The translations under genes and the position numbers were made by a program. From Candidatus Uhrbacteria bacterium RIFCSPLOWO2_01_FULL_47_25 (lineage in GTDB: Bacteria > Patescibacteriota > Patescibacteriia > GWA2-46-9): a stretch of DNA of 54,166 nt. This document shows positions 878 to 42,952 of this stretch, piece by piece (positions within the stretch are counted from its first letter, which is position 1; each line of letters starts with the position of its first letter). A model generated the notes under the pieces. That model did not search any database. It saw nothing but the letters and a program-made list of their open reading frames with translations, and had not been told where the DNA came from. The stretch is from the NCBI GenBank assembly GCA_001791325.1, contig MGEK01000003.1:20741-74906 (forward strand), given 5' to 3'.

Positions 878-1010
878 CCCCGTTAGAGGATCTCGGCAGA
901 AAAAGTTTTATTCAAAACTTTTTCTGCTAACCCAAAAGACTTATGCTAACAATAAAGATGGTTTGCAGTCTACCCCTTGATAGCGAGACAGAGACTATCC
1001 TCTAACGGGG
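878..1010. mobile_element. TIR miniature element copy 1 (CCCCGTTAGAGGAT ... ATCCTCTAACGGGG)
   Basis: 14-bp inverted termini at 878-891 and 997-1010. It lies between the pilT stop and tRNA-Arg. No TSD seen. Confidence 0.6.
896..927. terminator. perfect 14-bp AT-rich hairpin inside element copy 1
   Basis: gcagaaaaagtttt-attc-aaaactttttctgc. It lies downstream of pilT on the minus strand. Confidence 0.5.
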
Positions 1011-1031
1011 TACACTCTACTACAAATTTTT

Positions 1032-2084
1032 TCACTCGTCTAACCGTTCAGGGTTAAGCATGTACAGCGCGGCAATATTTTTGTCAATAACGCCTTGCTG
1101 ATAAAGATTAATCAATTCCTGATCCATGGGCACCATGCCCTCGCTCGCGCCAGTCTGAATGGCTGTTTTGATCTGGGCAATTTTATTATCACGAATAAGC
1201 GTGGACACCGCCGGAGTATTAATAAGTATTTCGCGCACTGCTGTTCGTCCGCCATTCTTTTTAGGCACCAGACGTTGAGAAATCACACTTTTCAAGGTCA
1301 TAGAAACCTGCAGACGAACCTGATTCTGCTGATATGGCGGGAAGATATCAATAATGCGGTCAATAGTTTGGGACGCACTGTAAGTGTGCAAAGTGGCAAG
1401 CACTAAGTGGCCGGTTTCGGCTATGGTGATTGCCGCGCTTATGGTTTCTAGGTCGCGCATCTCGCCAACCATTATAATGTTTGGATCCTGGCGAAGCACG
1501 TGTTTTAACCCTTCAGCAAATGACAGTATATCAGTACCCAGCTGTCTTTGCTTGACAATGCTCCTTTTTGGCTCAAAGATAAATTCAATCGGATCCTCCA
1601 GCGTGACAATATGAGCAGAACGCTCCTCGTTAATTAAATTGATGATGGCGGCGAGAGATGTTGATTTGCCATGCCCAGTCGGACCAGTAATCAAAATCAG
1701 CCCTTGATCCATGCGCGCTAGTTTAAAAACCACTTCGGGCATTCCCAATTCTTCCATAGTCGGTATTCGTCCGGGAATGACGCGCGCCACCAAACCAATA
1801 TGATCCCTTTCCCAGTGGAGGTTGGCGCGAAAACGACCGACCTTTTCCACTTCATACGCAAAATCAAGTTCCCTTTCCGTAATGAACCTATTTTTTTGCG
1901 CTTCCGTGATCATGACATAAACGATTGATTCCATGACTTTCGGAGACACGGCCCCATACTTCTCCATGGCAATTAACTGTCCATCAACACGGATGGTCGG
2001 AGGCAATCCAGTGGCTAAGTGCAAATCCGAGGCACCGCGCTTAACGGCGATCGTAAGTAATTCTTCTATATTAGGAGTACCCAT
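1032..2084 (-). CDS. pilT: type IV pilus retraction ATPase PilT
   Basis: 350 aa. N-terminal ASDLHL..G.PP..RVDG, Walker A GPTGHGKST, and typical PilT length and motifs. Confidence 0.9.
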   Translation of the reverse strand: MGTPNIEELLTIAVKRGASDLHLATGLPPTIRVDGQLIAMEKYGAVSPKVMESIVYVMITEAQKNRFITERELDFAYEVEKVGRFRANLHWERDHIGLVARVIPGRIPTMEELGMPEVVFKLARMDQGLILITGPTGHGKSTSLAAIINLINEERSAHIVTLEDPIEFIFEPKRSIVKQRQLGTDILSFAEGLKHVLRQDPNIIMVGEMRDLETISAAITIAETGHLVLATLHTYSASQTIDRIIDIFPPYQQNQVRLQVSMTLKSVISQRLVPKKNGGRTAVREILINTPAVSTLIRDNKIAQIKTAIQTGASEGMVPMDQELINLYQQGVIDKNIAALYMLNPERLDE

Positions 2085-2101
2085 ATATTGATGTTAATAT
2101 C

Positions 2102-2791
2102 TTACCACGATTTTTTAACTAACGCAGCCTGGGCAGCCGCCTCTTCGCCCTCCTGCTTGCTCGCCCCAGTGCCCGAAGCCACCTGCTCGTCGTCAAGATA
2201 GACCCCAATGGTAAATACTTTAGCGTGATCGGGGCCTATTTCAGAGAGAACCCTATAGCTTGGCGTGATGCCAACCTTCTCTTGAGCCGCTTCCTGAAAT
2301 CTGCTCTTAGGGTCTAAATGCAATTCATGTTCTAAAATATAGGGCAGACGGGAAATAACCGTGCGGGTCACAAATTCGGATGTTGCCGCGAACCCTTGAT
2401 CCATATACAAGGCGCCGACCACCGCCTCAAAAGCATTGGCCAAAATATACTGACGCGCCTTGGTGTTTACCTCCTTGGCTTCACCGCGCGAAAGATAAAG
2501 ATAATCATTCAATGACAAACTAGCGGCAATTTCAGACAACATTTTGGCATTAACCAAACTGGCCCGCCAATTAGTAAGCTCACCCTCCGGATTGGGATAG
2601 GTGCTATACAAATACTCGGTAACAATAAGCTCAATGACTGCATCTCCAAGAAATTCCAAACGTTCATTGTGCCCGAGTGCGAAATTTGGATTCTCATTTA
2701 GATATGAACGGTGCACCAAAGCCTGCTCAAGCAAGGATGGGTCTTGAAATGAAACACCCAATATTGATTCAAGTTTTTTTAAATCAGCCAT
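2102..2791 (-). CDS. rnc: ribonuclease III
   Basis: ERLEFLGDAV signature and a C-terminal dsRBD. 229 aa. Confidence 0.93.
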   Translation of the reverse strand: MADLKKLESILGVSFQDPSLLEQALVHRSYLNENPNFALGHNERLEFLGDAVIELIVTEYLYSTYPNPEGELTNWRASLVNAKMLSEIAASLSLNDYLYLSRGEAKEVNTKARQYILANAFEAVVGALYMDQGFAATSEFVTRTVISRLPYILEHELHLDPKSRFQEAAQEKVGITPSYRVLSEIGPDHAKVFTIGVYLDDEQVASGTGASKQEGEEAAAQAALVKKSW

Positions 2792-2792
2792 A

Positions 2793-2927
2793 CCCCGCTA
2801 GAAGGCCTCCCCAGCCCCCCGCTTGGCGGGGCGGGGTTGAATAAGATAAGCGGTTGAATAAGTAATCATAATAGCGTTGGTGGTAATAAAGTATGGTTAA
2901 TCCATCAAAGACGGACTTCTAACGGGG
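2793..2927. mobile_element. TIR miniature element copy 2
   Basis: Arms ccccgCtagaaggcc (2793-2807) and ggacttctaacgggg (2913-2927). The right arm overlaps the last codons and the TAG stop of nusB. The left arm ends 1 nt from the rnc ATG. Confidence 0.65.
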
Positions 2928-3455
2928 TTTCTTTAACTTTCCTTTTTTGGCTTTCTTTTGCAGAACGGGAGGAGCGTCGTCAGTCAAATTTTGTATGACC
3001 TCTTCTCCTGCTTCGGTGGTTGGTATTTCTTTATAAATTGCCCCCAAGACCCCGTTTACAAAACGACCGGATGACTCGCCGCCAAAAGTTTTGGCCAACT
3101 CAATTGCCTCATTGATAGCTACTTTGGCCGGAACTTCTTTGCCAAAGATAAGCTCAAAAACGCCCAGCCTTAATATGTTGCGATCTACAATAGTAATCTG
3201 GTCAATCGGCCATTCCGGAGCATAGCGTTCAATGTATTTATCAATGGCTGCCTGATTTTGAAGAACTCCTAAAATAAGCGAATGCACGAATCCTTGATCA
3301 TCAAATTCAGGAGCGAATTCTTTCAAATTACGATCAGCTAAAGCCAAAATCTCCGCCTCGTTGTTATTGCCAGCACCGGCCGATAAAGGGTGCGAAAAGT
3401 CCCACTCATAAAGCGTCTGCATAGCAACTGTGCGAGAGAGATGACGGTTGGCCAT
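2919..3455 (-). CDS. nusB: transcription antitermination factor NusB
   Basis: 178 aa with NusB-like core ([40 protein letters not shown]) and a Lys-rich tail. Confidence 0.85.
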
Positions 3456-3456
3456 A

Positions 3457-3697
3457 CCCCGTTAGAAGGCCTCCCCAGCCCCCCGCTTGGCGGGGCGGGG
3501 TTGAATAAGATAAGCGGTTGAATAAGTAATCATAATAGCGTTGGTGGTTAAACCCCGTTAGAAAGGACGGGGCTCTATCACGCCCTTTTTATAATAATGA
3601 ATTAACGTTTTTGATATCATCTTCGCCAGAAATAACGGGGACTTTCTAACGGGGTAAAGAGGTGGAATTAACACATTCAGACAACCTTCTAACGGGG
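3457..3697. mobile_element. TIR miniature element copy 3 (host of nested copy 4)
   Basis: Arms ccccgttagaagg (3457-3469) and ccttctaacgggg (3685-3697). Homologous to copy 2 over its whole length once the nested copy is removed. Confidence 0.65.
3553..3654. mobile_element. TIR miniature element copy 4, nested in copy 3
   Basis: Arms ccccgttagaaag (3553-3565) and ctttctaacgggg (3642-3654). Flanked by an exact TAAA duplication (3549-3552 and 3655-3658). Confidence 0.75.
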
Positions 3698-3722
3698 CCT
3701 GCTCATAATTCACCCCCCTGGC

Positions 3723-3962
3723 TCATCCTTCTTTCACGCTTCTGCCTTGCTTTTGCCGATGGCCCAGTCGCTTCAATCGCCGCATCGCTACCGTCTCCAC
3801 AACGACTCGGCCACGGTAAGTTCCACAATATGGGCAGACGGTATGAGGTAGAATCTTTTTATGACATTTTGCACAAGTAGTAAATGACCGCTTGGTTAAA
3901 GCGAAATGCGCGGCCCGACGCCGCTTAGAAGATTTAGTTCTCCTTTGACCTGGTAGTCCCAT
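3723..3962 (-). CDS. rpmF: 50S ribosomal protein L32 (with C-terminal extension)
   Basis: Basic N-terminus RRTKSSKRRR.AH and a CxxC...CxxC zinc knuckle (CAKC...CPYC). Confidence 0.8.
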   Translation of the reverse strand: MGLPGQRRTKSSKRRRAAHFALTKRSFTTCAKCHKKILPHTVCPYCGTYRGRVVVETVAMRRLKRLGHRQKQGRSVKEG

Positions 3963-3981
3963 AGTTTATAGGTTAAAAGTT

Positions 3982-4048
3982 TCCGCCCAAGGCGGATCAG
4001 CTTGGAGCTGAAAAATTAAAAGTTTTGAGTTTTCCCGCCCAAGGCGGG
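3982..4048. repeat. two GC-rich hairpin repeats (tccgcccaaggcgga, cccgcccaaggcggg)
   Basis: The palindromic units at 3982-3996 and 4034-4048 belong to the CCGCCC-RAG-GCGG family. That family is also seen near 598, 9311, 9400, 14680 and 40376. Confidence 0.7.
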
Positions 4049-4093
4049 TTGGCCTTGGGTTGAGACCTTTGACTTTTGACCTTGCTTTGCATC

Positions 4094-6577
4094 TTACCCA
4101 ACAATAGTAATTGAGGCAACTCTATCCTTCTCTCCCCTAAACCGCATCAACCGCACGCCTTGAGTCACGCGATTCAGGACACTAACTGAATCATAGGGCA
4201 GACGAATCACCTGACCGCTGGTTGAAATCAAAATAATATCGTGCGCTTCTCCTTTGTGATGTCGCGCTATGATTGCTCCAACAACCTCGCCAGTCTTTTT
4301 AGTAACGGCCATGGTTTTCACCCCAGAGCCGCCGCGCCCTTGAACCTTATACTGTGTAAGTTTAGTGCGTTTGCCAAAGCCATTTTCACTAACTACTATT
4401 AATTCCAACTCTTTTATTTCTCCAACTGTGGTTGGGACGACGCTCAAACTTACCACCTCGTCACCGGACTTTATGCGAATCGCCCTGACACCGCTTGCTT
4501 CCCGACCCATTTCCCGCACACCTTTTTCCTTAAACCGAATGGCTTGTCCTCGCTTGGTTATGATCATTATCTCATCTTGCCCTGAAGAAAGCATGACCCA
4601 TTTCAGGGCGTCACCAGACTTCAGACGCATAGCAATGAGACCAGAGCGACGAACATTGGCAAAATGTTCATAACTAACTTTCTTAATCATGCCCTTGGTA
4701 GTTCCCATAACAAAGTATCGTCCAGTCTTTTTGCCGCCAAAGGGTAAGACAGACGTCACGCTTTCGCCGGGGGCTAATTGCAAGAAATTGACAATGGCCT
4801 GCCCTTTGGATGTTCGTGAACCAGCCGGCACCTCGTAAGCCTTGAGTTGGAAGACACGACCCCGCGTCGTGAAAAACAAAAGGTCAGCATGCGTGGTAGT
4901 CACAAAAAAATGTTCAACCATATCTTCTTCTTTTGTGGTTAACCCCATTACCCCCTTGCCACCGCGGCTCTGGGTGCGGAAAGTTTCCGGTGGTAACCGC
5001 TTAACATAACCGTCGTGGGTTATAACAACAACCGTAGGCTCGTTGGGAATAAGATCCTCCTGCCTGAATTCACCCACTGCTTCAGGCACTATGGTTGTCA
5101 GCCGCGGCATCGGAAATCGTTTTTTCATCTCAAGTAATTCCGATTTGATAACACCTAAAATCTTCTTGGGTGAAGATAACAACGCTTCCAGTTCTTTGCT
5201 AAGCGCAAGTTTTTCTTTAAGCTCCTGCTCAATCTTCAACCGTTCAAGATTGGCAAGTTGTTGGAGGCGCATCTCCAAAATAGCCACGGCCTGACGTTCG
5301 GTCAGTGAAAACTTGCGCATTAAATTACCCCTCGCCTCATCCTTGTCGGCCGATTGCTTAATGGTCTTGATAACCGCGTCAATATTATCAACAGCTATTT
5401 TCAGTCCTTTCAAAATATGCGCCCGCTCTTTGGCGCGCCCCAGATCGTACTCCGTCCGCCGTCTAATAACGGTCTGACGGTGTTTGATATGCTCTTCAAG
5501 TACGGTCTTTAGGTTCAGCACTCGGGGCTGCACACCGTCAACCAAGGCCAGCATATTCATGTGAAAAGTCTGCTGCAGCTCGGTTGATTTATATAACTGG
5601 TTTAGAATCTTTTTGGGATAACTGTCTTTCTTTAAATCAATCACAACACGCACGCCATCTCGATCAGACTCATCACGAAGATCTTTAATGCCCTCAATTT
5701 TTTTATCATGCACCAAATCGGCGATGTGACTAACAAATTCAGCTTTATTGACCTGATAAGGAATGGCCGTAATCACGATGCACCATTGGCCGTTTTTATC
5801 TTCCTCAATTGCCGCCACACCGCGCATAAGAACAGCGCCCTTGCCCGTACCATAAGCCTGATGAATTTCTTTCACGTCATAGATCACGGCACCGGTTGGA
5901 AAATCGGGCCCCGGAATGAACTTCACTAAATCCTCGGTTGTGGCTTCTGGATTATCAATGAGATAAACAATACCATCCACCAGTTCGCCCAGGTTGTGCG
6001 GCGGAATTGATGTCGCCATGCCAACAGCAATACCCATAGTGCCGTTAAGTAATAGCCCCGGAAGTTTGCCCGGCAAAACTCGCGGTTCTTCATGAGTGCC
6101 GTCGTAATTTGGCACAAACGACACTGTCTCTTTGTCTATGTCAATCAACAGCTCTTCGGCCAAAGATGACAACTTGGCTTCGGTGTAACGCATGGCCGCG
6201 GCAGAATCGCCGTCCCTGGAACCGAAGTTTCCCTGTCCGCTGACCAATGGACCGCGCAGTGAAAACTCTTGCGCCATGCGCACCATAGCGTCATACACAG
6301 CCACATCCCCATGAGGGTGATATTTACCCAATACCTCGCCGACGACTGTCGCCGATTTGCGAAACTTGGCCGAAGACTTCAAGCCCATTTGCCACATGGC
6401 GTAAAGAATGCGGCGCTGTACCGGTTTCAAACCGTCGCGAACATCAGGCAATGCCCGCGACACGATAACAGACATGGCATAATCCAAATATGATTCAGAC
6501 ATTTCCTCCACGATGCCGCGGGGCAAAACGGCACCGATCGTTGTGTTGGATTGATTTTCTGTATTGGATATTTTCAT
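4094..6577 (-). CDS. gyrA: DNA gyrase subunit A
   Basis: 827 aa. Active-site region [11 protein letters not shown] and C-terminal beta-pinwheel repeats. Confidence 0.95.
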
Positions 6578-12431: not shown

Positions 12432-12538
12432 GCACACCTGCTTATTAAATCACTGTCGGCTGTGGTTGTAAAAAATGGATTCCTTAGTCCTTGCAAACCC
12501 CTCTTGGTTGATGGGAGTGCAATAATCGGAAGTAAATG

Positions 12539-12960
12539 CCGAGGGAGGGACTTGGCCGCCGCCATCCGGCGTGGTCCCGCCTACCTCTAGGTTTGAAATT
12601 TTGTGGGCGGGAAACCCTTAAGCTCTTGCGAGCGCCCCGCTCGGCGGGGTTTGCTTTTGCCTCCGAGAGGATTCGAACCTCTAACCCTTTCGGGACGTGG
12701 TCCTAGGCCACGCGCGCCCGCCTGCCATAAGCCTGTGTGCAGTATTCTTAAATTAGTCCGAACCCACCTTCGCTAAAGCTACGGACGGGCAGGCGCATTT
12801 CGCCCTTCGACAAGCTCGGGGCGAGGAAAACCCCCCGCGAAAAAATTCAGAAGTTGCGGCAGAGCCGCACCGTTGACAACCTGCCCGAATGAATTCGTTC
12901 AGGCGGGTTTCAAGTTTTTCTCTGCCCAGTACCGAATTCATTCTGGTGCGGGGTTTGATG
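12539..12960. repeat. direct repeat L (expanded copy) flanking the low-GC gene
   Basis: The 12539-12662 core is about 88% identical by eye to 13505-13626. Further blocks (attcttaaa.tag.tcgaac, gcatttcgcc, ggcgaggaa, cgcgaaaa, tttcaagttt) are colinear with 13640-13740 but interrupted by extra insertions. Confidence 0.75.
12661..12712 (-). pseudogene. tRNA-Leu(TAG)-like fragment (anticodon arm, long variable arm, T arm, 3' acceptor) embedded in repeat L
   Basis: The minus strand reads cgtgg-ccTAGga-ccacg tcccgaaaggg tt agagg-ttcgaat-cctct cggagg. No D arm or 5' acceptor is present. It is absent from repeat R. Confidence 0.55.
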
Positions 12961-13414: not shown

Positions 13415-13504
13415 AAACTAGTATTCATGTCTGAAACAATAAGAATTAAAAATTTTTTTCCCCCAAATTATTTGGTTCGCGTGAAGTGTATAATAACAAA
13501 TGTA

Positions 13505-14273: not shown

Positions 14274-14535
14274 GGAGCACCTCCTTTCGGGGTTTGGTTT
14301 TGCCGCAACACCCGCGGCGGGGACTACCGGTTATTCATAATTCCGATAATGCTGGAGGATAGCATTTTGGACCACGAAAGTCAAGAGGCGGCAAGCGCCG
14401 CCTCTTGGGAGTGTTTGAAAAATTTTTCTTTTCTGCTTTTAACGGAATCGGGAATTTCTTTTTGCCCCGAAAACTCCGTACGATTTGGTCGCCGAGCGGC
14501 GCGTTTCGCGCCGCGAGGCATTGACTTTTCCTACG

Positions 14536-15748: not shown

Positions 15749-15846
15749 TCCCGTTAGAAATAATACTCAATCGCTCTGCGGCGTGTTTTACCGCTCGAGA
15801 CCATTCACGAGGGGATCGCAATATCCCGTGGAAATTTCTAACGAGA
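15749..15846. mobile_element. TIR miniature element copy 5 (degenerate arms)
   Basis: Arms tcccgttagaaat (15749-15761) and atttctaacgaga (15834-15846). Exact TAAA duplication at 15745-15748 and 15847-15850. The left TSD contains the TAA stop of the upstream gene. Confidence 0.65.
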
Positions 15847-24243: not shown

Positions 24244-24388
24244 CCCCGTTAGAAGTCTGACTTAGCATAATCATCAATCTTTTGCCCATGATACAATTCA
24301 TTAACCAATTGAATACTATCCCGCAGAGCGGGACCAAAGAATATAAAATTATCTTAAGAATTTTATATTCCCATGACTTCTAACGGGG
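24244..24388. mobile_element. TIR miniature element copy 6
   Basis: Perfect 14-bp arms ccccgttagaagtc (24244-24257) and gacttctaacgggg (24375-24388). Exact TATG duplication at 24240-24243 and 24389-24392. Internal hairpin at 24339-24370 and GC micro-palindrome tcccgcagagcggga. Confidence 0.8.
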
Positions 24389-32999: not shown

Positions 33000-33746
33000 T
33001 TATTTTCTTAGTTTTAATCGCCGCCTCATTGCAATCAGGGCCGATATGTATTGCTTGATGATTTTAAGTAATGGAATGCCTGAATTGCGTCCAGAATACT
33101 TATATTCAATCCAAGAGACCGGCACCTCACTTATTTTATAGCTAGCCGCTTCGGCCAGCAAAAGCAATTCTGTGTCAAAGAACCAATCTTTATTCAGCAC
33201 TTGTGGCACAAGTTGGAGGACGACATCTTTATTTACTCCCTTACATCCACACGGTAAATCAGATAAACGCGTGTCGGTCATAACGCGTGCTAACCAGCGA
33301 TAACCCAAAGATATTAAACGACGATAAAGAGGACGAGTAACAGTTGAGTGAGCGAGCGCTCGTGAACATGTCGCGATATCGGCCCCTTGGACGAACGCTT
33401 GCATCATTAGCGGTAGGGCTTTCGTTAAATCAACGGAAAGATCGATATCACTAAAAAAATAATAATCAGCCTGAACTGACATCCATGATTGAAGAACCGC
33501 CCTTCCCTTACCGGGCTCTGACAGTACGCGGGCAACCACATTCGGAAGTTGATCGGCCAAACGCTTGGCTATCGGCAATGTTTCATCCGTAGAATCATTG
33601 ACAGCAATAATAATCAGCCACGGAGAGGGCAAAAATTTGAGAGCTACGGTGTGGGCTAAACGAATACTGCGCTCTAGAATAAGTGCTTCGTTTCTTACCG
33701 GAAAGACTAAGACGGCAGCATATTTTTTTCTTTCAAGGAACGGCAT
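33000..33746 (-). CDS. family 2 glycosyltransferase
   Basis: VLVFPVRNEA, AVNDSTDET and FSDIDLS motifs. Start set at the ATG at 33746, which gives a 14-nt overlap with the upstream gene. The ORF track extends to 33794. Confidence 0.7.
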   Translation of the reverse strand: MPFLERKKYAAVLVFPVRNEALILERSIRLAHTVALKFLPSPWLIIIAVNDSTDETLPIAKRLADQLPNVVARVLSEPGKGRAVLQSWMSVQADYYFFSDIDLSVDLTKALPLMMQAFVQGADIATCSRALAHSTVTRPLYRRLISLGYRWLARVMTDTRLSDLPCGCKGVNKDVVLQLVPQVLNKDWFFDTELLLLAEAASYKISEVPVSWIEYKYSGRNSGIPLLKIIKQYISALIAMRRRLKLRK

Positions 33747-35361
33747 AAATGGTTGCCTCGCTATCTTTATAAATAATTGGAAATTTATGAGCATTAAACA
33801 TTTTAACGGCTTCCTCAGTATGAAAATCGCTTACCAACACATACTCGGCTTTAAAACTATTTCTTATTACTGCCGCTGGATCTGAAGAAACCCCACGATA
33901 AATATTCTCCCACTCTTTAAGCCTGGCCTCATTATCGCCATCCAAAAATCTCAAATCCAGACCACTCACATACGATAAATTTGGAGCAAAATAAAATAAC
34001 GCCGGAAAATCATCCCATCTTAAATTATACACCATGGTACGCGAAGGCACTCTGCTCTCCAACCATTGGGATGCGCCTTTTAAATAAATAAAGGACCAGC
34101 CATTTTCAAATCGCTTATCAAGCAAACGTACTGTTCGTGTTGTGTAGACAACTATAAAAAAAATAATGAGCAGCGCTGTCATGGCGTACCACCATTTGCT
34201 CAACGACCAATCTTTAATAATTTGATAAAACGGATTCGTGGTCCCGGAACGCCAAAGAACGCTTAACCACAACGCTGTTGCTAAATGACCAAGGGGTATA
34301 AAATATTCAACATAACGCCTAGATATTAAAGTCAACAACAGAAAAGAGCAGCTAATAATCCCCATGGTTAAATAAAAAACTTTTTCTTTTGAATCATTAA
34401 ATCGCAAGGTCTGGTCCGTAAGCCAATCAATGATTAAAATGGTTATAACAACTAGAGATACAACAAAAAGCGGCGCGGCAGCCGTGAAAAGTTCAACCCA
34501 CGGGAACCGAAACCATTCGTTCCCCACGACACTAATGCTGGTCGGTATTAAAGCAATGTCAATGATTTGACGTTGAAAAAATGTAAGGTTCGTTGGAAAA
34601 TACGGATTGATAATAATACCAGCCACGCTGCCAAAAAAAGACCAACCCAAAGGGGCGATAGATGAATATAGTTTTTCTTTGCCAATAAAGAATAATCCCG
34701 CGCTATATAAAGCTACGCTAACCAATAATAACGGCCAACCGCCATATGTCCATACGTAAATAAAAGACAGAACGGCTAACCAATGATAACGATTCTCTTT
34801 TAAGCACACCAACCCCAAAAAATAGATAATCAGAGAAAGCGGCAGGGCTTTTACTAAATTGAGACGAAATAGGAGCGGCCAAGATGTACCGGCGAAAAAG
34901 GTCCACCAAAAAGCGCCGATCACTTGGAAACGACGCATGGTCCAAAAATAAACCAACAAAGCTAAGGGGCCAAGAATTACAATGGCCACTTTTAGTACGA
35001 CAATCGGATCAAACAACAAAACAAAGGGCACTAAAATTAGGTGATATAAAAAATGGTGATCGGTATAATAATTAGCCAAAAGTGTCAGCGGCAACCAAGG
35101 AAAATTTTTAACTAAGATTCCTTGCGATAAAAACTCGACTATTTTCGCGTGATAAAGAGAGTCGGAATCAAGAATGGTTGGATGACGCTGTAAGAAACCA
35201 AATAAAGCAACAAAAATAACGACCAGCACAGAGCCGGCCAGCCAAGGATGCAGCTCAAGAATGATAAGGACAGAACGTAATTTATTCAAAATTTTTTGGG
35301 CAATCACCCCGTTAGAAGTCCAACTATGCATCATTTCCGTCTCTTTGTGCTTTGCAATCAT
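33733..35361 (-). CDS. large polytopic membrane protein, GT-C-like
   Basis: About 14 TM segments with a DSDSLYHAK loop. The annotated ATG (35361) lies inside TIR element copy 7. An in-frame GTG at 35307 is an alternative start. Confidence 0.5.
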   Translation of the reverse strand: MIAKHKETEMMHSWTSNGVIAQKILNKLRSVLIILELHPWLAGSVLVVIFVALFGFLQRHPTILDSDSLYHAKIVEFLSQGILVKNFPWLPLTLLANYYTDHHFLYHLILVPFVLLFDPIVVLKVAIVILGPLALLVYFWTMRRFQVIGAFWWTFFAGTSWPLLFRLNLVKALPLSLIIYFLGLVCLKENRYHWLAVLSFIYVWTYGGWPLLLVSVALYSAGLFFIGKEKLYSSIAPLGWSFFGSVAGIIINPYFPTNLTFFQRQIIDIALIPTSISVVGNEWFRFPWVELFTAAAPLFVVSLVVITILIIDWLTDQTLRFNDSKEKVFYLTMGIISCSFLLLTLISRRYVEYFIPLGHLATALWLSVLWRSGTTNPFYQIIKDWSLSKWWYAMTALLIIFFIVVYTTRTVRLLDKRFENGWSFIYLKGASQWLESRVPSRTMVYNLRWDDFPALFYFAPNLSYVSGLDLRFLDGDNEARLKEWENIYRGVSSDPAAVIRNSFKAEYVLVSDFHTEEAVKMFNAHKFPIIYKDSEATIYAVP

Positions 35362-35441
35362 CTATAATTCTATTAGGCACCGCAATCCCAACGCAGATAA
35401 ATTCTTTCAAGAATTTTATCTGCCTAGGACTTTTAACGGGG
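35307..35441. mobile_element. TIR miniature element copy 7
   Basis: Arms ccccgttagaagtcc (35307-35321) and ggacttttaacgggg (35427-35441), with 1 mismatch. Internal hairpin at 35393-35423. No TSD. Confidence 0.6.
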
Positions 35442-35464: not shown

Positions 35465-37498
35465 CTAAAGCAGGCCAATGATAAGAAGAGCGACGATGTT
35501 TAAAATTTTTATCATGGGGTTAATGGCCGGACCGACCGTGTCTTTGTAGGGATCGCCAACCGTATCGCCGGTAACCGCCGCCTGATGGGCAAACGATCCT
35601 TTGCCGCCATGGTGTCCGGCTTCAATGTATTTTTTAGCATTGTCCCAAGCCGCGCCGCCCGTGGTCATACTGATAGCCAAAAATAAACCAGTCACAATGC
35701 TGCCGACCAAGAGTCCTCCTAGGGCATCGGCCCCAAGCGTCAATCCAACCGCTATCGGCGCAACTACGGGAATCAAAGCCGGCAATATCATCTCCCGAAG
35801 CGCCGTTTTGGTCACAATATCAACCGCTTTGGCATAATCTGGTTTTCCGGTACCGTCCATAATTCCTTTAATCTCCCTGAATTGCCGACGCACTTCTTCC
35901 ACCACTTCACCGGCCGCCTTGCCGACTGACTCCATAGCCAGTGACGCAAACCAGTAAGTGATTATGCCTCCCAAAAATAAACCAATGATAACGTTTGGAT
36001 TGGAGAGAGAAAAATTCACGTTACCAACCTCATTGGCAAAAGCCGCAAAAAGCACGACAGCCGCGAGGCCCGCCGAACCAATAGCATAACCCTTAGTCAC
36101 GGCCTTGGTGGTGTTGCCAACCGCGTCCAAAGGGTCGGTCACAGCTCGCACGCTCTCTGGCAATCCGGCCATCTCGGCAATACCGCCGGCATTATCGGTT
36201 ACAGGGCCATAAGCGTCAATTGTCACAATAATGCCGGTCATTGAGAGCATGGAGAGAACCGCGATAGCCACGCCGTACAAACCGGCAAAATACCCAGCGG
36301 CTAAAATTCCTAAACCGATAACCAAAACTGGCAAAACAGTGGAGCGCATGCCAATCGCCAGTCCCGCTATAATGTTCGTGCCGTGTCCAGTTGTTGAGGC
36401 ATTAGCAATATGCTGAACCGGCTTGTATTTTGTGGAAGTAAAGTAATCAGTAATCCAAACCATTAAACCAGTAACGACCAAACCAATAAGAAGACTCATA
36501 TAGAGACCGTTGGGAGACAGAACGAAGGGAGAATTAAGAAATGCTTCAGCCCATATATCGTTGACATCAATGTTATATAACGTTTGTCGCGTATAGATCG
36601 TAGTGACAAAATAAAACGCACCAGCGGCTATCAAACCGCTCGCTACGAGCCCCTTGTAAAGGGCGCGCATAATACGTTCGTCCCCAGACTTCAAACGAAT
36701 AAACCAAATACCAACAATTGAGGCGAGAATTGACACACCAGCGATTACCAAGGGATAACGTAAAATAGCCGGATTATTCCCGAACAACTGTTGACCCAAA
36801 ACCATCGCCGCGATTATTGTCACGGCGTAAGTTTCAAACAAATCGGCGGCCATGCCGGCGCAATCCCCCACATTGTCGCCAACATTATCCGCGATAACCG
36901 CCGGGTTCCTGGGATCGTCTTCTGGAATACCGGCCTCAACCTTGCCAACCAAATCAGCACCGACATCAGCGGCCTTGGTAAAAATACCACCGCCCAGACG
37001 GGCAAAAACAGAAATTAAACTTCCCCCAAAACCGAGACCGATCAGCGCTTGAACATTTTGAGTAATGGCGTAAAAACCAGTTACTCCCAAGAGCCCCAAA
37101 CCCACGACAAGTAATCCTGTTACTGAACCAGCATCAACAGCCACGCGAAAAGCGGCAGGCAAACCATTCTTGGCCGCTTCGGTCGTGCGTACATTGGCCT
37201 TGACCGAAACGCGCATACCAATATAGCCGGCCAGAGCTGAAAATAAAGCGCCAACCACAAATCCAGCTGCAGTAGTGAAAGAAATTAAAAACCACAGCAG
37301 CAAAAAAATTGGCACCGCCACCAAACCAACGGTGCGGTATTGGCGCTTGAGATACGCCCTAGCCCCTTCTTCAATAGCCGCGGCAATACTTTGCATTTTT
37401 TCGTCGCCGCTTGGCAATTTAAGAAGGCGGCGAATAATCACGACGCCGTAGGTCAAAGCGATAAGCGCCGTCAAAATGGCAAACCAAATTGCGTTCAT
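35465..37498 (-). CDS. hppA: membrane-bound proton/sodium-translocating pyrophosphatase
   Basis: 677 aa with conserved GDNVGD, DxxGDPxKD and other H+-PPase blocks. Confidence 0.95.
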
Positions 37499-37531: not shown

Positions 37532-38788
37532 TTATTCTGAAGAAATCTTCTCGGCCTCATCTCCTTCACCGTCATCTTCAACTGCGTCAGCCAACGACTC
37601 ATCGTCAATAATCGGCTGCAGGTCGCCGCTTTCCGAGCGGATGTCTATTTTCCAGCCGGTGAGTTTGGCGGCCAAGCGAACATTTTGTCCGCCCTTACCA
37701 ATGGCGAGCGACAATTGATCTTCGGCCACCGTCGCTACTGCCACTCTGGCCGCTTCATCAGTTTCAATCATCAGCACCTTGGCTGGCGAGAGGGCATTAG
37801 TGATATAGCGCACTGGATCAGGGCTATACTCAATAATATCTATTTTTTCGCCGCCGAGCTCCGAAATAATCGTTTGCACTCTCGTGCCCCTTTGCCCGAC
37901 ACAAGAGCCGATTGGATCAACATTGGGGTCAAGCGCTTCTACTGCTATCTTAGAGCGTGATCCGGCTTCCCGAGAAATACCGCGAATGGCAATAAGTCCG
38001 TTGGCAATTTCGGGAATCTCCATGGTAAAAATTTGGCGAACCACTTCTGGATGAGACCTTGAAACGATAATTTCAGGACCCTTGGGCGTGGCATTAACGG
38101 ACACAATATAAACCTTCAGACGATCGCCGGGAGTATATCGCTCTTTGGCAATTTGTTCTTCCGACGGTAAAATACCAATACCTCTACCAAGATCAACATA
38201 AACTGCACGATTGTCGCGGCGTTGTACTACGGCCGTTACTATTTGATGTTCTCGCCCTTTCAATAGCTCATATACATTAGTATGCTCGGCCTCGCGGAGT
38301 TTTTGAATAATTACTTGCTTAGCTGTTTGTGCGGCCATGCGCCCGTAGGCGCTCGGCACCTCTAGGCGGGTTCTGATTTCATCACCAACTTTAGCGTCGG
38401 ACTTTATTGCTTTGGCCTCGGTAAGACCAACATCTGTTTTGGGATTAAATCTTCGCTCTATTTCCTCACCGGCCTCCTCTCCCGCGGCAGCAACCGTTGA
38501 CAAGGGTTGCCTTAATTTAGCATATTCAGCCACTTGAGGTTCCTCTTCTTCACGGGCCCGCGCCGCGGCAACCAATTCATCTTCAACTACTATTTTCACG
38601 TCAAAAACATCAGCCACGCCAGTGGCCGGATTGAAAGTCACTCTAATATTCTGATTTTTCTCGCCGAAATCCTTGCGGTAGGCAGCCGCTAAGGCCGCCT
38701 CAATTGCGCTAATAATTGCTTCAGCGCTAATTCCTTTTTCTTCCGCAATCTGCTGAATGGCTCCTAAAATTGAAGTTTCTTCGGACAT
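37532..38788 (-). CDS. nusA: transcription termination/antitermination factor NusA
   Basis: N-terminal domain, S1 and two KH domains (GxxG: IGKGGQN). Acidic tail. Confidence 0.9.
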   Translation of the reverse strand: MSEETSILGAIQQIAEEKGISAEAIISAIEAALAAAYRKDFGEKNQNIRVTFNPATGVADVFDVKIVVEDELVAAARAREEEEPQVAEYAKLRQPLSTVAAAGEEAGEEIERRFNPKTDVGLTEAKAIKSDAKVGDEIRTRLEVPSAYGRMAAQTAKQVIIQKLREAEHTNVYELLKGREHQIVTAVVQRRDNRAVYVDLGRGIGILPSEEQIAKERYTPGDRLKVYIVSVNATPKGPEIIVSRSHPEVVRQIFTMEIPEIANGLIAIRGISREAGSRSKIAVEALDPNVDPIGSCVGQRGTRVQTIISELGGEKIDIIEYSPDPVRYITNALSPAKVLMIETDEAARVAVATVAEDQLSLAIGKGGQNVRLAAKLTGWKIDIRSESGDLQPIIDDESLADAVEDDGEGDEAEKISSE

Positions 38789-38808
38789 ACCCCAACTCTC
38801 TAACGGGG
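38789..38808. repeat. stub resembling a collapsed TIR element
   Basis: The minus strand reads CCCCGTTAGAGAGTTGGGGT immediately followed by the nusA ATG. Confidence 0.4.
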
Positions 38809-40456: not shown

Positions 40457-40481
40457 GAATTTCGAGCTTAGTCATTGTTTA

Positions 40482-40583
40482 CCCCGTTAGAAATATAATC
40501 AATGTTTACCATGAGGGGAATAAGGTTGTTTTGCATAAAGTACATATGAGATATGATATATTGTGGTTTAATTTCTAACGGGG
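40482..40583. mobile_element. TIR miniature element copy 8
   Basis: Arms ccccgttagaaat (40482-40494) and atttctaacgggg (40571-40583). Exact TTTA duplication at 40478-40481 and 40584-40587. Confidence 0.8.
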
Positions 40584-40633
40584 TTTAGAGATTAGAGATT
40601 GGAGATTATCAACATTATACCACGCCAATCGCA

Positions 40634-42031
40634 TTAAGATGAAGAGTGCGCCCCAAGTTGTTGAACGACCGCCCGAAACTGGTCACCGCGATCGCCCGCG
40701 TTTTTGAAGCGATCAAAGCTGGCGGCGGCTGGCGAGAGCAGCACCACATCTCCGGATTTCGCGAACTTACGCGCAGTTTTTACCATCTCGCTCATTATTT
40801 CACCGCCACTGACGCACGAGGGCGCTTTAAAATTACGCGCCTTGGCCAAGCGCCGAATGGCAGCATACATTTTATCGGCACTGAGTCCGATAGCCACAAT
40901 GGTCTTAACAGAATTCTCCAAAATACATTCGGCCAAATGATCATAAGATAATTTTTTCTCTGATCCGCCCAGCATTAAAATAATCGGCTCGTCAAATGAG
41001 CGAATGGCGGCAATGGTGGTTTCGGGTGTCGTGCCATATGAATTATTCCAATAAGATACCCCCCCATATTCACCGACAAATTCTAGACGGTGTGGGAGAC
41101 CAGTAAAACTTTTCAAAACTTGGCGGATGGCGTTCATAGACGCGCCGGCCAAGGTGGCGGCCACAATAGCGGCAGTAATATTTTCCAGGTTGTGTTTGCC
41201 CTTGAGGCCAACCTCGTGGCGAAACAAAACGTGCTCCGTGCGATTATTCATCCGACGAAATATCACATCACCAGCAACGTACGCACCATCCGCTACTGGA
41301 ACATCTCGGCTAGTTTCATAAATTTTACCTTTGGCTTCAACCATCAAACGTTTTGTTTCCGGATAATCAATGCTAAAGATGACCGCATCATTTGGCTTCT
41401 GAAATTTTAAAATATTTGATTTTGCCGCAAAATATTCTTCCGGACTCTTATGGTAGTCTTGATGATCAATCGTAAGTCCAAGCACCGCCGCAATGTGCGG
41501 TGACTTGTTTAAATCCTGTAATTGAAAACTGGAAAGCTCATATGCCACCCAGTGTCGAGGCGTTAATTTAGGCAAAACGGAAATGGCCGGTACGCCGATA
41601 TTGCCGACTAAAAAAACTTTCTTTTTGGCCGCCGTGAGTATTTTGGCAATCAGCGTGGAGGTTGTGCCCTTACCCTTGGTTCCCGTTACGCCGATAATGG
41701 GAGCCGGGCACAGTTCAAAAAAGATTTTTGTTTGGCTAGTAATTTCCACACCCGCCCTACGCGCGGCAAGGAGCGCCGGCAAACTCAAAGGAACGCCCGG
41801 ACTTCTGAAAATAGATGAAAATTGCGTAAGGTTTTTTAGGTAAGATGGCCCAAGCCGCCAATGTATATCGCGCCCTTGCCATGATTCGTACGCCTCGCCC
41901 AATGCCGCCGGCTCGCGCTCGTCAAGAATGGTAATGTGCGTCCCTTCTTGCAATAAATACTCGGCCATGGCTTGGCCTTCCTGGCCAAAACCCAAAATCG
42001 CAACTTTTTTGCCCTGATAATTCATTGACAT
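40634..42031 (-). CDS. murD: UDP-N-acetylmuramoylalanine--D-glutamate ligase
   Basis: GVTGTKGKGTT P-loop and Mur ligase architecture. 465 aa. Confidence 0.9.
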   Translation of the reverse strand: MSMNYQGKKVAILGFGQEGQAMAEYLLQEGTHITILDEREPAALGEAYESWQGRDIHWRLGPSYLKNLTQFSSIFRSPGVPLSLPALLAARRAGVEITSQTKIFFELCPAPIIGVTGTKGKGTTSTLIAKILTAAKKKVFLVGNIGVPAISVLPKLTPRHWVAYELSSFQLQDLNKSPHIAAVLGLTIDHQDYHKSPEEYFAAKSNILKFQKPNDAVIFSIDYPETKRLMVEAKGKIYETSRDVPVADGAYVAGDVIFRRMNNRTEHVLFRHEVGLKGKHNLENITAAIVAATLAGASMNAIRQVLKSFTGLPHRLEFVGEYGGVSYWNNSYGTTPETTIAAIRSFDEPIILMLGGSEKKLSYDHLAECILENSVKTIVAIGLSADKMYAAIRRLAKARNFKAPSCVSGGEIMSEMVKTARKFAKSGDVVLLSPAAASFDRFKNAGDRGDQFRAVVQQLGAHSSS

Positions 42032-42084
42032 TACTTACAGCTTATAGCTTATGGCTAGCGTAGCGATTATGGCTTATCGCTTTA

Positions 42085-42173
42085 CCCCGTTAGAGAATGC
42101 CTCGCGTCTTGCCGCATGGTCTGGCTCAATACGAGTGCGGGGTCCAATACCTCACGCGAATTCTCTAACGGGG
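42085..42173. mobile_element. TIR miniature element copy 9
   Basis: Arms ccccgttagagaat (42085-42098) and attctctaacgggg (42160-42173). Exact TTTA duplication at 42081-42084 and 42174-42177. It overlaps the last 22 nt of murI. Confidence 0.8.
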
Positions 42174-42952
42174 TTTACGGCTTCGCTGGCCTCCACCCTC
42201 TCTCCCAACCACCACTTGGCGGTCTCCTGAAAATGCCTTGGGTCACTGCTGACATAAAACAACGAACGGCTATTTTTGGATAAACCCGCGTCAATAGCCG
42301 GATTTTGCTCCAAAAAATTTTTAACGGAGGCGGCCGTGGATTCGGCCGGGTTAACTATCTTAACTGTTTTTCCCATCACCCTCGCGATGAGTGCTTGCAA
42401 AAAAGGATAGTGCGTGCAGGCCAAAATAAGCGTGTCCACATGCGCGTCTTTCAAGGGTTTTAAGGAACGACGAATAATGCGCATGCTTTCCGGATATTTC
42501 CACCATCGCTCCTCCACCAGGGGCACAAGCATAGGCGTTGCCCGCGATATAACCAATATATTTTTATCCACCGCCTGAAGCAAGCGTTCATACACGCCGC
42601 TCCCCACTGTGGCCCTTGTGCCAATAACGCCGATGCGGCCACGCGTTATTCGCTGGGCCGCTTCCACGGCTGGCTGAACAACATCAAAAACCGGTACCTT
42701 GAGACGCTCGCACAAATGATCAGCGGCCACAGCCGAAACGCTGTTGCAGGCAATAACAATCAAGCGCGCCCCGCGAGAGAGCAAAAAATCGGCGTCTTCT
42801 TCGGCGTACTGGCGCAATCGCTCCGGCGACTGGGAGCCATAAGGGAACCGCGCCGTATCACCAAAATATACTAAATCATACTTTGGCAACAACTCACGGA
42901 TCGCTTTTAGGGTAGTTAACCCCCCAGCTCCGGAATCAAAGATACCGATCAT
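42152..42952 (-). CDS. murI: glutamate racemase
   Basis: IGIFDSGAGGLT, ACNS and CTHYP motifs. Confidence 0.9.
   Translation of the reverse strand: MIGIFDSGAGGLTTLKAIRELLPKYDLVYFGDTARFPYGSQSPERLRQYAEEDADFLLSRGARLIVIACNSVSAVAADHLCERLKVPVFDVVQPAVEAAQRITRGRIGVIGTRATVGSGVYERLLQAVDKNILVISRATPMLVPLVEERWWKYPESMRIIRRSLKPLKDAHVDTLILACTHYPFLQALIARVMGKTVKIVNPAESTAASVKNFLEQNPAIDAGLSKNSRSLFYVSSDPRHFQETAKWWLGERVEASEAVNPVREFA

Follow-up and report, generated by a model that had tools for sequence, protein, structure and literature searches.

The 54,166-nucleotide stretch of a CPR genome analysed here (the window; Candidatus Uhrbacteria bacterium RIFCSPLOWO2_01_FULL_47_25, contig MGEK01000003.1) raises the question of what the short inverted-repeat insertions at its gene boundaries are, and what could have placed them there. 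The analysis showed that they are mobile DNA. The ten features found are probably miniature, non-coding representatives of a widespread family of tiny mobile elements, that is, gene-less relatives of a cassette encoding a GIY-YIG nuclease that would act on them in trans. The 279-bp GIY-YIG element, which occurs across numerous uncultured bacterial phyla, together with such gene-less relatives, may represent a new kind of very small transposon.

Arm pairs and copies in the window

The window contains nine arm pairs, CCCCGTTAGA...TCTAACGGGG, and one stub. An initial annotation had placed the pairs at the positions listed below, where they were recovered by scanning the window for CCCCGTTAGA with at most one mismatch. 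The scan gave 18 matches, against 2.07 expected from shuffles (largest 6), which were assigned to the nine pairs and a solo arm at 38799-38808. The inverted repeat is perfect over 13-14 bp in six pairs, and covers 12-15 bp with one mismatch in the pairs at 2793, 15749 and 35307.

878..1010, miniature element of 133 bp, 14-bp perfect arms, flanks GAAA/TACA, no duplication; an AT-rich hairpin (896-927) adjoins its left arm; neighbours, a tRNA gene (786-857, minus strand) and the stop of a T2SSE/PilT-like ATPase gene (1032-2084, minus strand)
2793..2927, chimeric miniature element of 135 bp, left arm CCCCGCTAGA (one mismatch), flanks CATA/TTTC; the ATG of rnc (2102-2791, minus strand) abuts its left arm
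3457..3697, outer element of 241 bp with a nested copy, 13-bp arms, flanks CATA/CCTG; 135 bp after subtraction of the nested copy and one TAAA; the ATG of nusB (2919-3455, minus strand) abuts its left arm
3553..3654, nested miniature element of 102 bp inside 3457-3697, 13-bp arms; target-site duplication TAAA at 3549-3552 and 3655-3658
15749..15846, miniature element of 98 bp, T...A-ended arms TCCCGTTAGAAAT / ATTTCTAACGAGA (one mismatch); duplication TAAA at 15745-15748 and 15847-15850, the left one including the TAA stop of ORF 15307-15747 (plus strand)
24244..24388, miniature element of 145 bp, 14-bp arms, hairpin at 24339-24370; duplication TATG at 24240-24243 and 24389-24392, the right one providing the ATG of the last PF18895 pilin-like gene (24390-24797, plus strand)
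35307..35441, miniature element of 135 bp, right arm TTTTAACGGGG (one mismatch), flanks ATCA/CAAG, hairpin at 35393-35423; neighbours, an H+-pyrophosphatase gene (35465-37498, minus strand) and ORF 33733-35361 (minus strand)
38790..38808, stub of 19 bp, CCCCAACTCTCTAACGGGG, in which the right arm is complete and the other arm is reduced to CCCC; immediately next to the ATG of nusA (37532-38788, minus strand)
40482..40583, miniature element of 102 bp, 13-bp arms, downstream of murD (40634-42031, minus strand); duplication TTTA at 40478-40481 and 40584-40587
42085..42173, miniature element of 89 bp, 14-bp arms; duplication TTTA at 42081-42084 and 42174-42177; inserted into the last codons of the glutamate racemase gene (42152-42952, minus strand), whose new stop falls within the element

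Exact 4-bp direct repeats flank the five copies for which they had been annotated (TAAA at 3553 and 15749, TATG at 24244, TTTA at 40482 and 42085), and are absent at copies 878, 2793, 3457 and 35307. The nesting of one copy in another was likewise confirmed. The pair at 15749 was correctly located but its arms are of another type, with T...A ends; this variant is also found in full-length elements elsewhere and constitutes a distinct subfamily. Similarly, the copy at 2793-2927 keeps its limits but is not a simple copy, since the left part of 3457-3697 is repeated in its left ~100 bp together with 6 bp of flanking sequence (GCCATA), and the arm on the right comes from another subtype. The CATA/CCCC junction at the nusA stub is identical to that at rnc and nusB. 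By BLAST the interiors are mostly unrelated, as had been proposed, except for the 2793/3457 pair and for copy 878, whose interior clusters with copies from nine other CPR genomes. An AT-rich hairpin beside one arm is common to a subset of copies, in variable orientation relative to the genes. Within the window neither a transposase, in agreement with the initial annotation, nor a GIY-YIG ORF or remnant was found.

Evidence for mobility

Duplication statistics were obtained from 141 copies in more than 100 metagenome-assembled genomes. An exact 4-bp duplication is present in 81 of them, against 11.7 expected by permutation (largest 24), and the signal is seen only at length 4 and offset 0. All 81 exact duplications are located at T/C-N-N-A/G sites. 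The target tetranucleotides are Y-N-N-R, mostly T-N-N-A; YNNR flanks amount to 131/141 and 132/141 (about 93%, against a background of 23%), and the outer flank positions on both sides are T (80%) and A (79%). By contrast, a bias that the proposed mechanism does not account for is seen in copies lacking the duplication, with TTYA or CTTG 5' of both arms and never the reverse. A related strain (locus L126) carries a perfect empty site, ...ACCG TAAA GCCATAAGCCATAATCGCTACGC..., with a single TAAA, whose counterpart in the window is TAAA[89 bp]TAAA (copy 42085-42173). Hence two of the checks proposed with the initial annotation, comparison of the flanking 4-mers with controls and a search of relatives for empty sites, uphold its view of the copies as mobile MITE-like insertions with 4-bp target-site duplications. 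In two further related strains (L210 and L211) the murD locus, at which the window has copy 40482, also lacks arms, and nested insertions occur both in the window (3553 in 3457) and within the GIY-YIG genes of two further loci (L009 and L204). In the DX4.bin27 genome a seemingly multi-copy 94-bp element sits within a larger repeat and is therefore not independent evidence.

The annotated location at gene boundaries holds for the wider set, in which only 18 of 142 element midpoints fall within long ORFs, compared with an ORF coverage of 80%. In 14 copies (0.3 expected) an ORF of 80 or more codons ends in a stop codon that forms the start of the duplication. Because the targets include stop codons and T-ATG starts, the duplication leaves the stop or start of the neighbouring gene intact, which would explain the survival of copies exactly at the gene boundaries of compact genomes.

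The full-length cassette and the short copies

Two aspects go beyond the initial annotation: the spread over many phyla and a coding parent, a ~279-bp cassette whose gene ends in the right arm. The arm-bounded family is not restricted to one lineage, with members in Patescibacteria, Omnitrophota, Planctomycetota, Desulfobacterota and other phyla. The full-length form, found in genomes other than that of the window, is bounded by 13-bp inverted arms, CCCCGTTAGAGAN ... NTCTCTAACGGGG. An ATG located 8-10 nt downstream of the left arm opens its sole ORF, which encodes an 86-aa single-domain GIY-YIG nuclease and whose final four codons, TCT CTA ACG GGG (S-L-T-G), are the right arm. No stop codon closes the ORF within the element; one is often provided by the flanking target copy (TAA-A, TGA-A). 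In a 281-bp copy (L079, 6919-7199) the 86-aa ORF matches PF01541 (E = 5e-14). Both arms were located for 81 of 82 GIY-YIG genes from metagenome contigs, the left one upstream of the gene and the right one, in 80 of those 81, as its last codons, the arm-bounded elements being 275-286 bp long; exact duplications were found in only 21 of 80 full-length copies. Complementarity of the arms is kept by changes on both sides, even where the protein is altered, with compensatory C:G to T:A replacements at arm position 1 (18/69) and changes at position 13 (23/69); a sister clade with a YLTG terminus has arms CTCCGTGAGATA / TATCTCACGGGG. Pairing ends after position 13. The complementary inner positions, previously read as long terminal repeats or an RNA stem, are instead the last positions of a 13-bp inverted repeat that compensatory changes preserve. 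Insertion is recurrent at equivalent positions of ORF6N-type genes in several genomes, which may be inherited copies in a multigene family.

A homolog search yielded 1744 proteins, most of exactly 86 aa; neither the GIY-YIG core residues nor the C-terminus, NRLKRFLSLTG, varies among them. The AlphaFold model (pLDDT 91.8) predicts a minimal GIY-YIG fold whose nearest structures are UPF0213, Slx1, HIGLE, I-TevI and UvrC; no DNA-binding domain is attached to this 86-aa core. The nearest relatives from cultured bacteria (e.g. Sinorhizobium, 37% identity) are placed among hairpin repeats, and phage records gave only two weak matches. No description of an CCCCGTTAGA-type element was found in the literature searched and the arm motif has no Rfam match, in line with the earlier statement that the terminal repeat was not recognised from any described IS or MITE family.

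Of 144 short copies, 107 have an interior without relatives elsewhere in the sample, and 15 short copies share contigs with GIY-YIG genes. One (L099) retains the N-terminal 23 residues of the ORF (E = 1e-8), and four (L058, L122, L013 and L085) show weak matches to C-terminal pieces (E = 0.2-0.9). Some short copies are therefore internal-deletion derivatives, an origin shown for a minority only, since about five copies have ORF remnants. Most of them, including all those of the window, consist of arms and unrelated filling, often with an AT-rich hairpin by one arm.

Proposed mechanism, alternatives and known systems

The arms would be mobilised in trans by the GIY-YIG nuclease, which could recognise paired or duplex arms, cut the arm/flank junctions and open the target with a stagger of 4 nt, after which host repair or ligation would finish the insertion. 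As the window has no GIY-YIG ORF or remnant, the source of enzyme for its nine copies is assumed to be a full-length copy elsewhere in the genome or community. No strand-transfer activity is known for GIY-YIG enzymes, which are hydrolytic nucleases, and a 4-bp duplication is not obviously expected because the characterised Ssn relatives cut only single-stranded DNA. Nevertheless, a precedent exists in the single-domain Ssn-family GIY-YIG nucleases, which bind and cut beside repeats flanking their own genes (PMC11893778).

Short elements and GIY-YIG cassettes could instead be passengers of a conventional DDE transposase, one candidate being of the IS1380/piggyBac kind, that would act on the CC-ended 13-bp arms and produce the 4-bp duplication, with the nuclease gene as cargo. 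Inverted terminal repeats with a fixed-length duplication are the hallmark of DDE transposition, the ends resemble those of piggyBac/IS1380 (CCC..., 13 bp, 4-bp duplication), nine copies lie in a window with no nuclease gene, and no GIY-YIG enzyme is known to join DNA. We regard this explanation as unlikely. The GIY-YIG gene is the only ORF ever found between arms in about 200 loci. A transposase bounded by the arms, such as the initial annotation had suggested looking for, is not enclosed by any long arm pair in the loci sampled, and no other protein family recurs near the copies. TTAA is missing from the 81 duplications, and the paired-arm pattern from 2.9 million viral contigs. Furthermore, cargo status alone would hardly account for a right arm that sits within the nuclease ORF and varies along with it from clade to clade.

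GIY-YIG nucleases are also classic homing endonucleases, I-TevI being among the fold matches, and the cassette might have spread as a free-standing homing endonuclease gene, with the nuclease breaking the target, repair copying the element in from another copy and the flank repeats arising as by-products of microhomology-mediated repair. The recurrent ORF6N-type insertions resemble a site preference, although they may be inherited in a multigene family, and many full-length copies lack the exact duplication. However, homing requires flank homology and produces no duplication, whereas these elements occupy a wide variety of sites and 57% of the short copies show an exact duplication of a single set length, 4 bp; with a protein devoid of a DNA-binding domain outside its 86-aa core, this scenario appears very unlikely. 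Extremely improbable is that the arms are a conserved functional signal, be it an operator, a stem acting in RNA processing or as a terminator, or the inverted repeats around promoter segments that can be flipped (phase variation). Several copies abut starts (rnc, nusB, nusA, pilin), many have a hairpin beside one arm and arm complementarity is kept, but such a reading, in part foreseen in the initial annotation, is contradicted by the empty site in a close relative and by duplication statistics unlike those of a fixed signal. In addition, no flipped segment occurs in six assemblies 99.7-100% identical over the window overlap, Rfam matches are absent, promoter- or terminator-like sites are not enriched, hairpin orientation relative to genes varies, and the same arms enclose a protein-coding cassette in other phyla.

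The preferred reading, mobilisation in trans by the GIY-YIG nuclease, has its closest published parallel in the Ssn nucleases with NTS/SRM repeats (Chenal et al., Nat Commun 2025, PMC11893778). Both systems have a single-domain GIY-YIG protein of about 90 residues and a specific repeat on both gene flanks that is also gene-free in many intergenic copies. The authors noted that the repeat-gene-repeat layout resembles an insertion sequence and proposed domestication, an IS-like origin being speculative (PMC11893778). The flanks of the cassette, in contrast, are 13-bp half-sites inverted relative to each other, the right one being part of the ORF, whereas every NTS flank forms a hairpin by itself. 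The two proteins also diverge in their C-terminal half (...KRFLSLTG versus ...WKLNLIEELNPEW...). Neither the window nor 80 GIY-YIG loci contain a match to the published SRM search motif. Here transposition is shown by exact 4-bp duplications, an empty site and nested insertions; for NTS it was not reported.

The free-standing GIY-YIG homing endonuclease genes (I-TevI, Seg proteins) have in common the catalytic fold and a small selfish gene, but their enzymes carry extra DNA-binding domains, reside in phage genomes or introns and depend on homology to spread, and the genes have neither terminal inverted repeats nor duplications. REP/REPIN sequences with RAYT (IS200/IS605-like HUH) transposases also combine a small nuclease gene and flanking repeats thought to be dispersed by the nuclease, as short hairpin-forming doublets scattered in intergenic positions; REPINs, however, leave the target unduplicated, are species-specific and rely on an HUH tyrosine enzyme, whereas the present family has 4-bp duplications, cross-phylum arm identity and a GIY-YIG enzyme. 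By description, piggyBac/IS1380 elements share the CC-initiated ~13-bp terminal repeats, the 4-bp duplication and the T...A outer bases, and differ in that no locus here has a DDE transposase between the arms and TTAA accounts for 0/81 duplications. Finally, the short copies are like bacterial MITEs (Correia elements, Nezha, MITEAba12) in being short and non-coding, with terminal inverted repeats, a fixed-length target duplication and many intergenic copies, nested and chimeric ones included. Known MITEs, however, derive from IS elements with a DDE transposase and usually share their interiors within a family, whereas in the family described here the sole coding relative encodes a GIY-YIG nuclease, most interiors are unrelated and the arms are the same across many phyla.

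Arm pairs of the window

With one mismatch at most, CCCCGTTAGA occurs 18 times in the window, where 2.07 occurrences are expected, and the matches resolve into nine pairs of arms and one solo arm (38799-38808). The nine pairs and the stub located by the initial annotation were recovered, together with one nested copy and exact 4-bp direct repeats at the flanks of five of the nine copies; its description of the arms stood for the pairs and is corrected in the list for the ends of copy 15749, for 2793-2927 and for the stub.

Arm-bounded copies in the window (span, or start of the left arm)
878: arm pair
2793-2927: chimera; the left part of 3457-3697 recurs in its left ~100 bp together with six flank bases
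3457-3697: outer copy of a nested pair
3553-3654: copy nested within 3457-3697
15749: arm pair with T...A ends
24244-24388: copy separating the last of seven tandem PF18895 (T4SS_pilin-like) small-protein paralogs (21311-24797)
35307: arm pair
40482: arm pair
42085-42173: copy inserted in the final codons of the glutamate racemase gene, whose end now lies inside the element
38790-38808: stub with the whole right arm, the other arm being reduced to CCCC

The arms are perfect over 13-14 bp in six of the nine copies and extend over 12-15 bp with one mismatch in the other three. The copies, present at a density of about one per 6 kb, are 89-241 bp long, and neither a GIY-YIG domain nor any other was detected inside them. 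Core genes adjoin them, namely those of a PilT-like ATPase, rnc, nusB, nusA, the H+-pyrophosphatase, murD, glutamate racemase and the PF18895 pilin-like paralogs. Wherever six other assemblies overlap the window they are 99.7-100% identical to it. No GIY-YIG gene or remnant was found in the window by tblastn and a profile scan in six frames, none of the nine copies carries ORF traces, and a promoter and terminator scan of 700-4100 gave no enrichment.

Just upstream of rnc and nusB, on the minus strand, the stretches 2787-2890 and 3451-3554 are near-identical over ~105 bp that hold the first codons (ATGGC), an arm, a GC-rich hairpin and a doubled CTTATTCAACC motif; the upstream region of one of these genes, with part of an element, is a copy of that of the other. 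The same junction, GGGG-T-ATG, stands at the starts of rnc, nusB and nusA (2787-2796, 3451-3460 and 38784-38793), and in each of them an arm directly abuts the start codon, which would push any ribosome-binding site away by an element's length. The window contains other repeats as well. A 131-bp direct repeat of 91% identity (12534-12662 and 13498-13627), unrelated to the arm family, flanks a ydjM-like gene (12968-13414), and a further repeat family, with no relation to the arms, may be represented by the GC-rich motif CCGCCCGAGGC, which lies at 598, 14670 and 40377 (-) within GC-rich, structured stretches close to tRNA genes and downstream of murD. At 14414-14452, near a tRNA gene (14539-14620, minus strand), several independent assemblies (loci L003, L005 and L006) break or change context, with different genes upstream in L003, and the region 14414-14620 may be a hot spot of rearrangement or integration.

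Dispersal and target duplication

The distribution of the arms was followed by scanning one genome per GTDB species (596 Gb) for CCCCGTTAGA-N(69-129)-TCTAACGGGG. At least 119 stretches matched, and the matches listed include Patescibacteria of many classes, Saccharibacteria, Omnitrophota, Planctomycetota with anammox lineages, Desulfobacterota, Nitrospinota, Thermodesulfovibrionales, Spirochaetia, Edwardsbacteria and Stahlbacteria. By our own estimate chance would give ~33 matches for 20 specified bases in such a volume of DNA; the matches are not accounted for by chance because they carry the duplication, the target rule and other features of the element. The family thus extends beyond the lineage of the window. 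Viral contigs contained no arm pairs, and phage and plasmid records gave only distant relatives of the protein (<42% identity).

The elements are mobile DNA, as the initial annotation had proposed. Among the matches listed, identical 4-mers stand at both flanks in 81 of 141 copies with readable flanks, compared with 11.7 by permutation and 24 in the largest permuted set, and this excess over permuted and offset controls is restricted to length 4 and offset 0. About 93% of the copies have Y-N-N-R, mostly T-N-N-A, at both flanks (background 23%), and the 81 duplications comprise 35 of TAAA/TTTA, 19 of TGAA/TTCA and eight of TTGA/TCAA, with TATG/CATA also among the commonest. Among the short copies only 4 have exact inverted flanks, against 13 by permutation, and an inverted instead of a direct duplication was accordingly rejected. 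An empty site was found for 42085-42173 in the related strain L126, whose MurD is 86% identical: it reads ...ACCG TAAA GCCATAAGCCATAATCGCTACGC..., where the window has TAAA, 89 bp and TAAA. The murD loci of two further related strains, L210 and L211, lack arms.

Insertion is also unevenly distributed with respect to genes, element midpoints falling in long ORFs in only 18 of 142 cases against an ORF coverage of 80%. In 14 copies, window copy 15749 included, a long ORF ends on a stop codon made up of the duplication's first three bases (0.3 expected), and copy 24244, which lies on TATG, leaves the pilin gene its ATG through the duplicated copy of the target. The window copies at TATG and TAAA are explained by one logic, the restoration of host starts and stops, and it would be owing to this design that only junction insertions survive.

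Several arrangements were seen beside these. Where the flanks differ, in copies without duplication among the loci L007-L209, both arms are preceded on their 5' side, reading into the arm, by TTYA or CTTG (for example TTCA[...]TGAA and CTTG[...]CAAG), the opposite arrangement never being seen. In the genome DX4.bin27 a 94-bp miniature copy occurs at four places (L015, L023, L078), each time inside a larger repeated unit; the flanks are homologous over at least 60 nt, so that these copies do not count as independent evidence of recent transposition, and their number is put down to amplification of the larger repeat and not to movement of the small element.

The GIY-YIG cassette and its probable miniature forms

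No transposase gene was found between such arms; the ORF that they enclose in other genomes is a GIY-YIG nuclease gene. The first coding copies came from two Omnitrophota loci, L079 (6919-7199, 281 bp) and L009 (3773-4160), which have both ends in common and whose complementary strand codes for an 86-residue protein with the PF01541 GIY-YIG catalytic domain (E = 5e-14). A homolog search returned 1744 proteins; most of them have exactly 86 residues, and both the GIY-YIG core residues and the C-terminus, NRLKRFLSLTG, are invariant; their source annotation is only 'GIY-YIG nuclease family protein' or 'putative endonuclease'. Among 1.84 billion representative proteins the family profile reaches 13,345 clusters (50% identity) at E ≤1e-3 and 2,915 at E ≤1e-10. 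The predicted structure is a bare GIY-YIG fold (pLDDT 91.8) with UPF0213 BH0048, Slx1, HIGLE, I-TevI and UvrC as nearest structures, and the sequence matches in the PDB are UPF0213 proteins.

The relation between arms and gene was established at 80 metagenome loci with 82 nuclease genes. A left arm, (C/T)CCCGTTAGAGA, precedes the ATG by a few bases in 81 of the 82, and the right arm, TCTCTAACGGG(G/A), constitutes the last four codons, S-L-T-G, in 80 of 81. The cassette so defined is most often 279 bp long, within a range of 275-286 bp. Directly beyond the right arm stands a stop codon in 54 of 81 copies, and these take their stop from the flank. The arms form a 13-bp inverted repeat that is kept by compensatory change: two-sided changes occur at 8 of 16 tested positions, position 1 passes from C:G to T:A in 18 of 69 distinct sequences and position 13 is changed in 23 of 69, a covariation reached by no shuffle, and the pairing stops after position 13. 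Some of the compensatory changes alter the encoded residues (ALTG, TLTG, ILTG, SVTG), and hence the constraint acts on the DNA. A sister clade whose protein ends in YLTG has matching arms, CTCCGTGAGATA and TATCTCACGGGG. The arms are associated exclusively with one small nuclease gene whose core GIY-YIG residues are conserved.

The design of the cassette also seems suited to compact genomes. In the subfamily with T...A ends, 14 of 21 full-length copies occupy an ATGA(A/G) of the host, whose ATG is in frame with the left arm (M-N-P-V-R-E...) and with the nuclease ORF beyond it; the last base of the element with the duplicated TGA gives ATG-A again, which opens a long downstream host ORF. The element can accordingly use host start signals and returns the start codon. 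Full-length copies of this subfamily, TCCCGTTAGAG...CTCTAACGGGA, were seen at host ATGA(A/G) starts in loci L146, L150, L159, L169, L172, L174, L185, L192 and L194. An exact duplication is found in only 21 of 80 full-length copies. Many full-length elements (L133, L143, L168, L171, L180, L193, L207 and others) lie towards the 3' end of ORF6N-type genes, which have the motif ...LNQAVKRN..RFP.DFMFQLT..., at one of two equivalent positions, an uninterrupted paralog being also present in L133; these copies may have been inherited within a multigene family or may reflect a site preference.

Short and full-length forms share the arms, the 4-bp duplication and the type of target. In one locus a 136-bp copy retains the first 23 codons of the ORF (L099, 4775-4910), and four other short copies give weak matches to C-terminal pieces of it (E = 0.2-0.9). 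Many Omnitrophota and Planctomycetota copies have inside one arm a covarying hairpin that corresponds to two palindromic, KRF-coding stretches of the ORF joined together, and a deletion between these two stretches would have produced it. Fifteen short copies, down to 29-31 bp of arms and loop, are on contigs of nuclease genes, and the nuclease genes of L009 and L204 are interrupted by short copies. An ORF trace is absent in most short copies, and the interiors of 107 of 144 match nothing else sampled; an AT-rich perfect hairpin beside one arm, its sequence covarying between copies, recurs in those of CPR genomes. The minimal forms, two arms with a loop of 3-5 nt (L060 3405-3435, L080 1262-1291, L116 3952-3980, L174 2567-2595 and 2781-2810), may be collapsed elements or excision products. 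The ~279-bp cassette, known from other genomes and absent in the window, is the candidate coding partner, having the same arms, duplication length and target type, and the features of the window are very probably miniature members of its family.

Proposed mobilisation and comparison with known systems

Other enzymes and other readings of the arms were considered. No convincing long autonomous copy was found at arm spacings of 400-6000 bp among the 119 genome loci of the matches listed, no transposase-like ORF stood beside solo arms, and the neighbouring ORFs, when all were clustered, yielded no protein family that recurs near the copies. The CC-type ends resemble those of IS1380/piggyBac elements, which are kept as a rival of low weight; no long arm pair encloses a DDE transposase ORF, the only enclosed ORF being the GIY-YIG gene, and none of the 81 duplications is TTAA. 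A REPIN/RAYT system is contradicted by the 4-bp duplications and by the nature of the flanked gene, which is GIY-YIG and not HUH (Y1). An invertible promoter segment would invert between assemblies, and no inversion was seen over 15749 and 24244 in the six that are 99.7-100% identical there; the direct flank repeats and the empty site also speak against it. Sites of the attC or XerCD type were rejected, the order of the core being reversed with respect to attC, cassette arrays being absent and the flank repeat differing from copy to copy. As to an Rfam RNA family, only tRNAs reach the gathering score, and nothing credible appears at E up to 5 over 700-3900.

The nuclease would act on the arms in trans, cutting at the junctions of arm and flank and making a 4-nt staggered cut at the target, and host functions would seal the joints. 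Its fold matches include Slx1 and HIGLE, which are structure-specific nucleases, and this suggests that the stem into which the two arms pair may be what it recognises. Caution over this mechanism is called for on two counts: GIY-YIG enzymes are hydrolases, and the Ssn relatives that have been characterised cut only single-stranded DNA, beside a hairpin (PMC11893778). We regard the case for the nuclease as mobilising enzyme as evenly balanced. The combined explanation, miniature copies of a family mobilised by the nuclease, is likely. We advance with more reserve, and as slightly the weaker case, that the transposase is none other than the 86-residue nuclease. On that reading no known autonomous DNA transposon would be smaller than the ~279-bp cassette, which would represent a new mechanistic class of prokaryotic transposon (nuclease-only, TIR-bounded, with a 4-bp duplication at YNNR), with many miniature derivatives in Patescibacteria, Omnitrophota, Planctomycetota, Desulfobacterota and further phyla; the duplicated target would give the element its stop codon and the host an intact start or stop.

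Known DNA transposases belong to the DDE, HUH, tyrosine, serine, Cas1 and DEDD classes. If the proposal holds, GIY-YIG would join them, and a bare domain of 86 residues could drive transposition, setting a new lower size limit for an autonomous element. For CPR biology the copies show that even ~1-Mb genomes nearly devoid of classical insertion sequences can bear much mobile DNA, about one copy per 6 kb in the window, at the junctions of core operons (rnc, nusB, nusA, murD, pilins). A nuclease so small, and sequence-specific for a defined 13-bp site, would moreover make an attractive molecular tool. Should the transposase prove to be another enzyme, thousands of 'hypothetical' 86-aa genes still gain a new annotation from the cross-phylum family, from its target rule and from a design that preserves start and stop codons.

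The miniature copies have the attributes of MITEs, being short and non-coding, with terminal inverted repeats, a duplication of fixed length and insertion polymorphism. From each of the known classes compared, namely classical MITEs, piggyBac/IS1380, REPIN/RAYT, homing endonuclease genes, invertons and Rfam families, the system departs in at least one defining feature. In the full-text literature covered, which is not all journals, searches for the motif 10-mer, for MITEs in these phyla and for GIY-YIG transposons yielded no description, and one paper lists a GIY-YIG protein among the genes exchanged between Patescibacteria and other bacteria; as far as found, a widespread GIY-YIG-only element has not been described previously. 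Among published systems Ssn, with its NTS/SRM repeats, comes closest: a single-domain GIY-YIG nuclease of ~94 residues, assigned to CDD family cd10448, whose gene is flanked by a genome-wide repeat, in a layout that its authors likened to an insertion sequence, suggesting domestication (PMC11893778). The likeness lies in a single-domain protein of ~90 residues, which here, in the full-length relatives outside the window, has 86 residues, PF01541 and a minimal fold; the minimal 29-31 bp forms also resemble the short hairpin repeats of Ssn/NTS, and a Sinorhizobium GIY-YIG protein that sits among hairpin repeats is 37% identical. The SRM motif HGTCWY...RNCYNB has no match in the window or in the GIY-YIG loci L130-L209, and the same motif search does find the NTS consensus. 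If the proposed mobilisation is true, the recently described Ssn/NTS systems would no longer be an isolated curiosity, since an active mobile element would be known among their relatives. The two systems differ in that the flanks of Ssn are hairpins, whereas here they are half-sites of one inverted repeat, in that the right arm of this family is coding, and in that transposition is seen here from duplications, empty sites and nesting.
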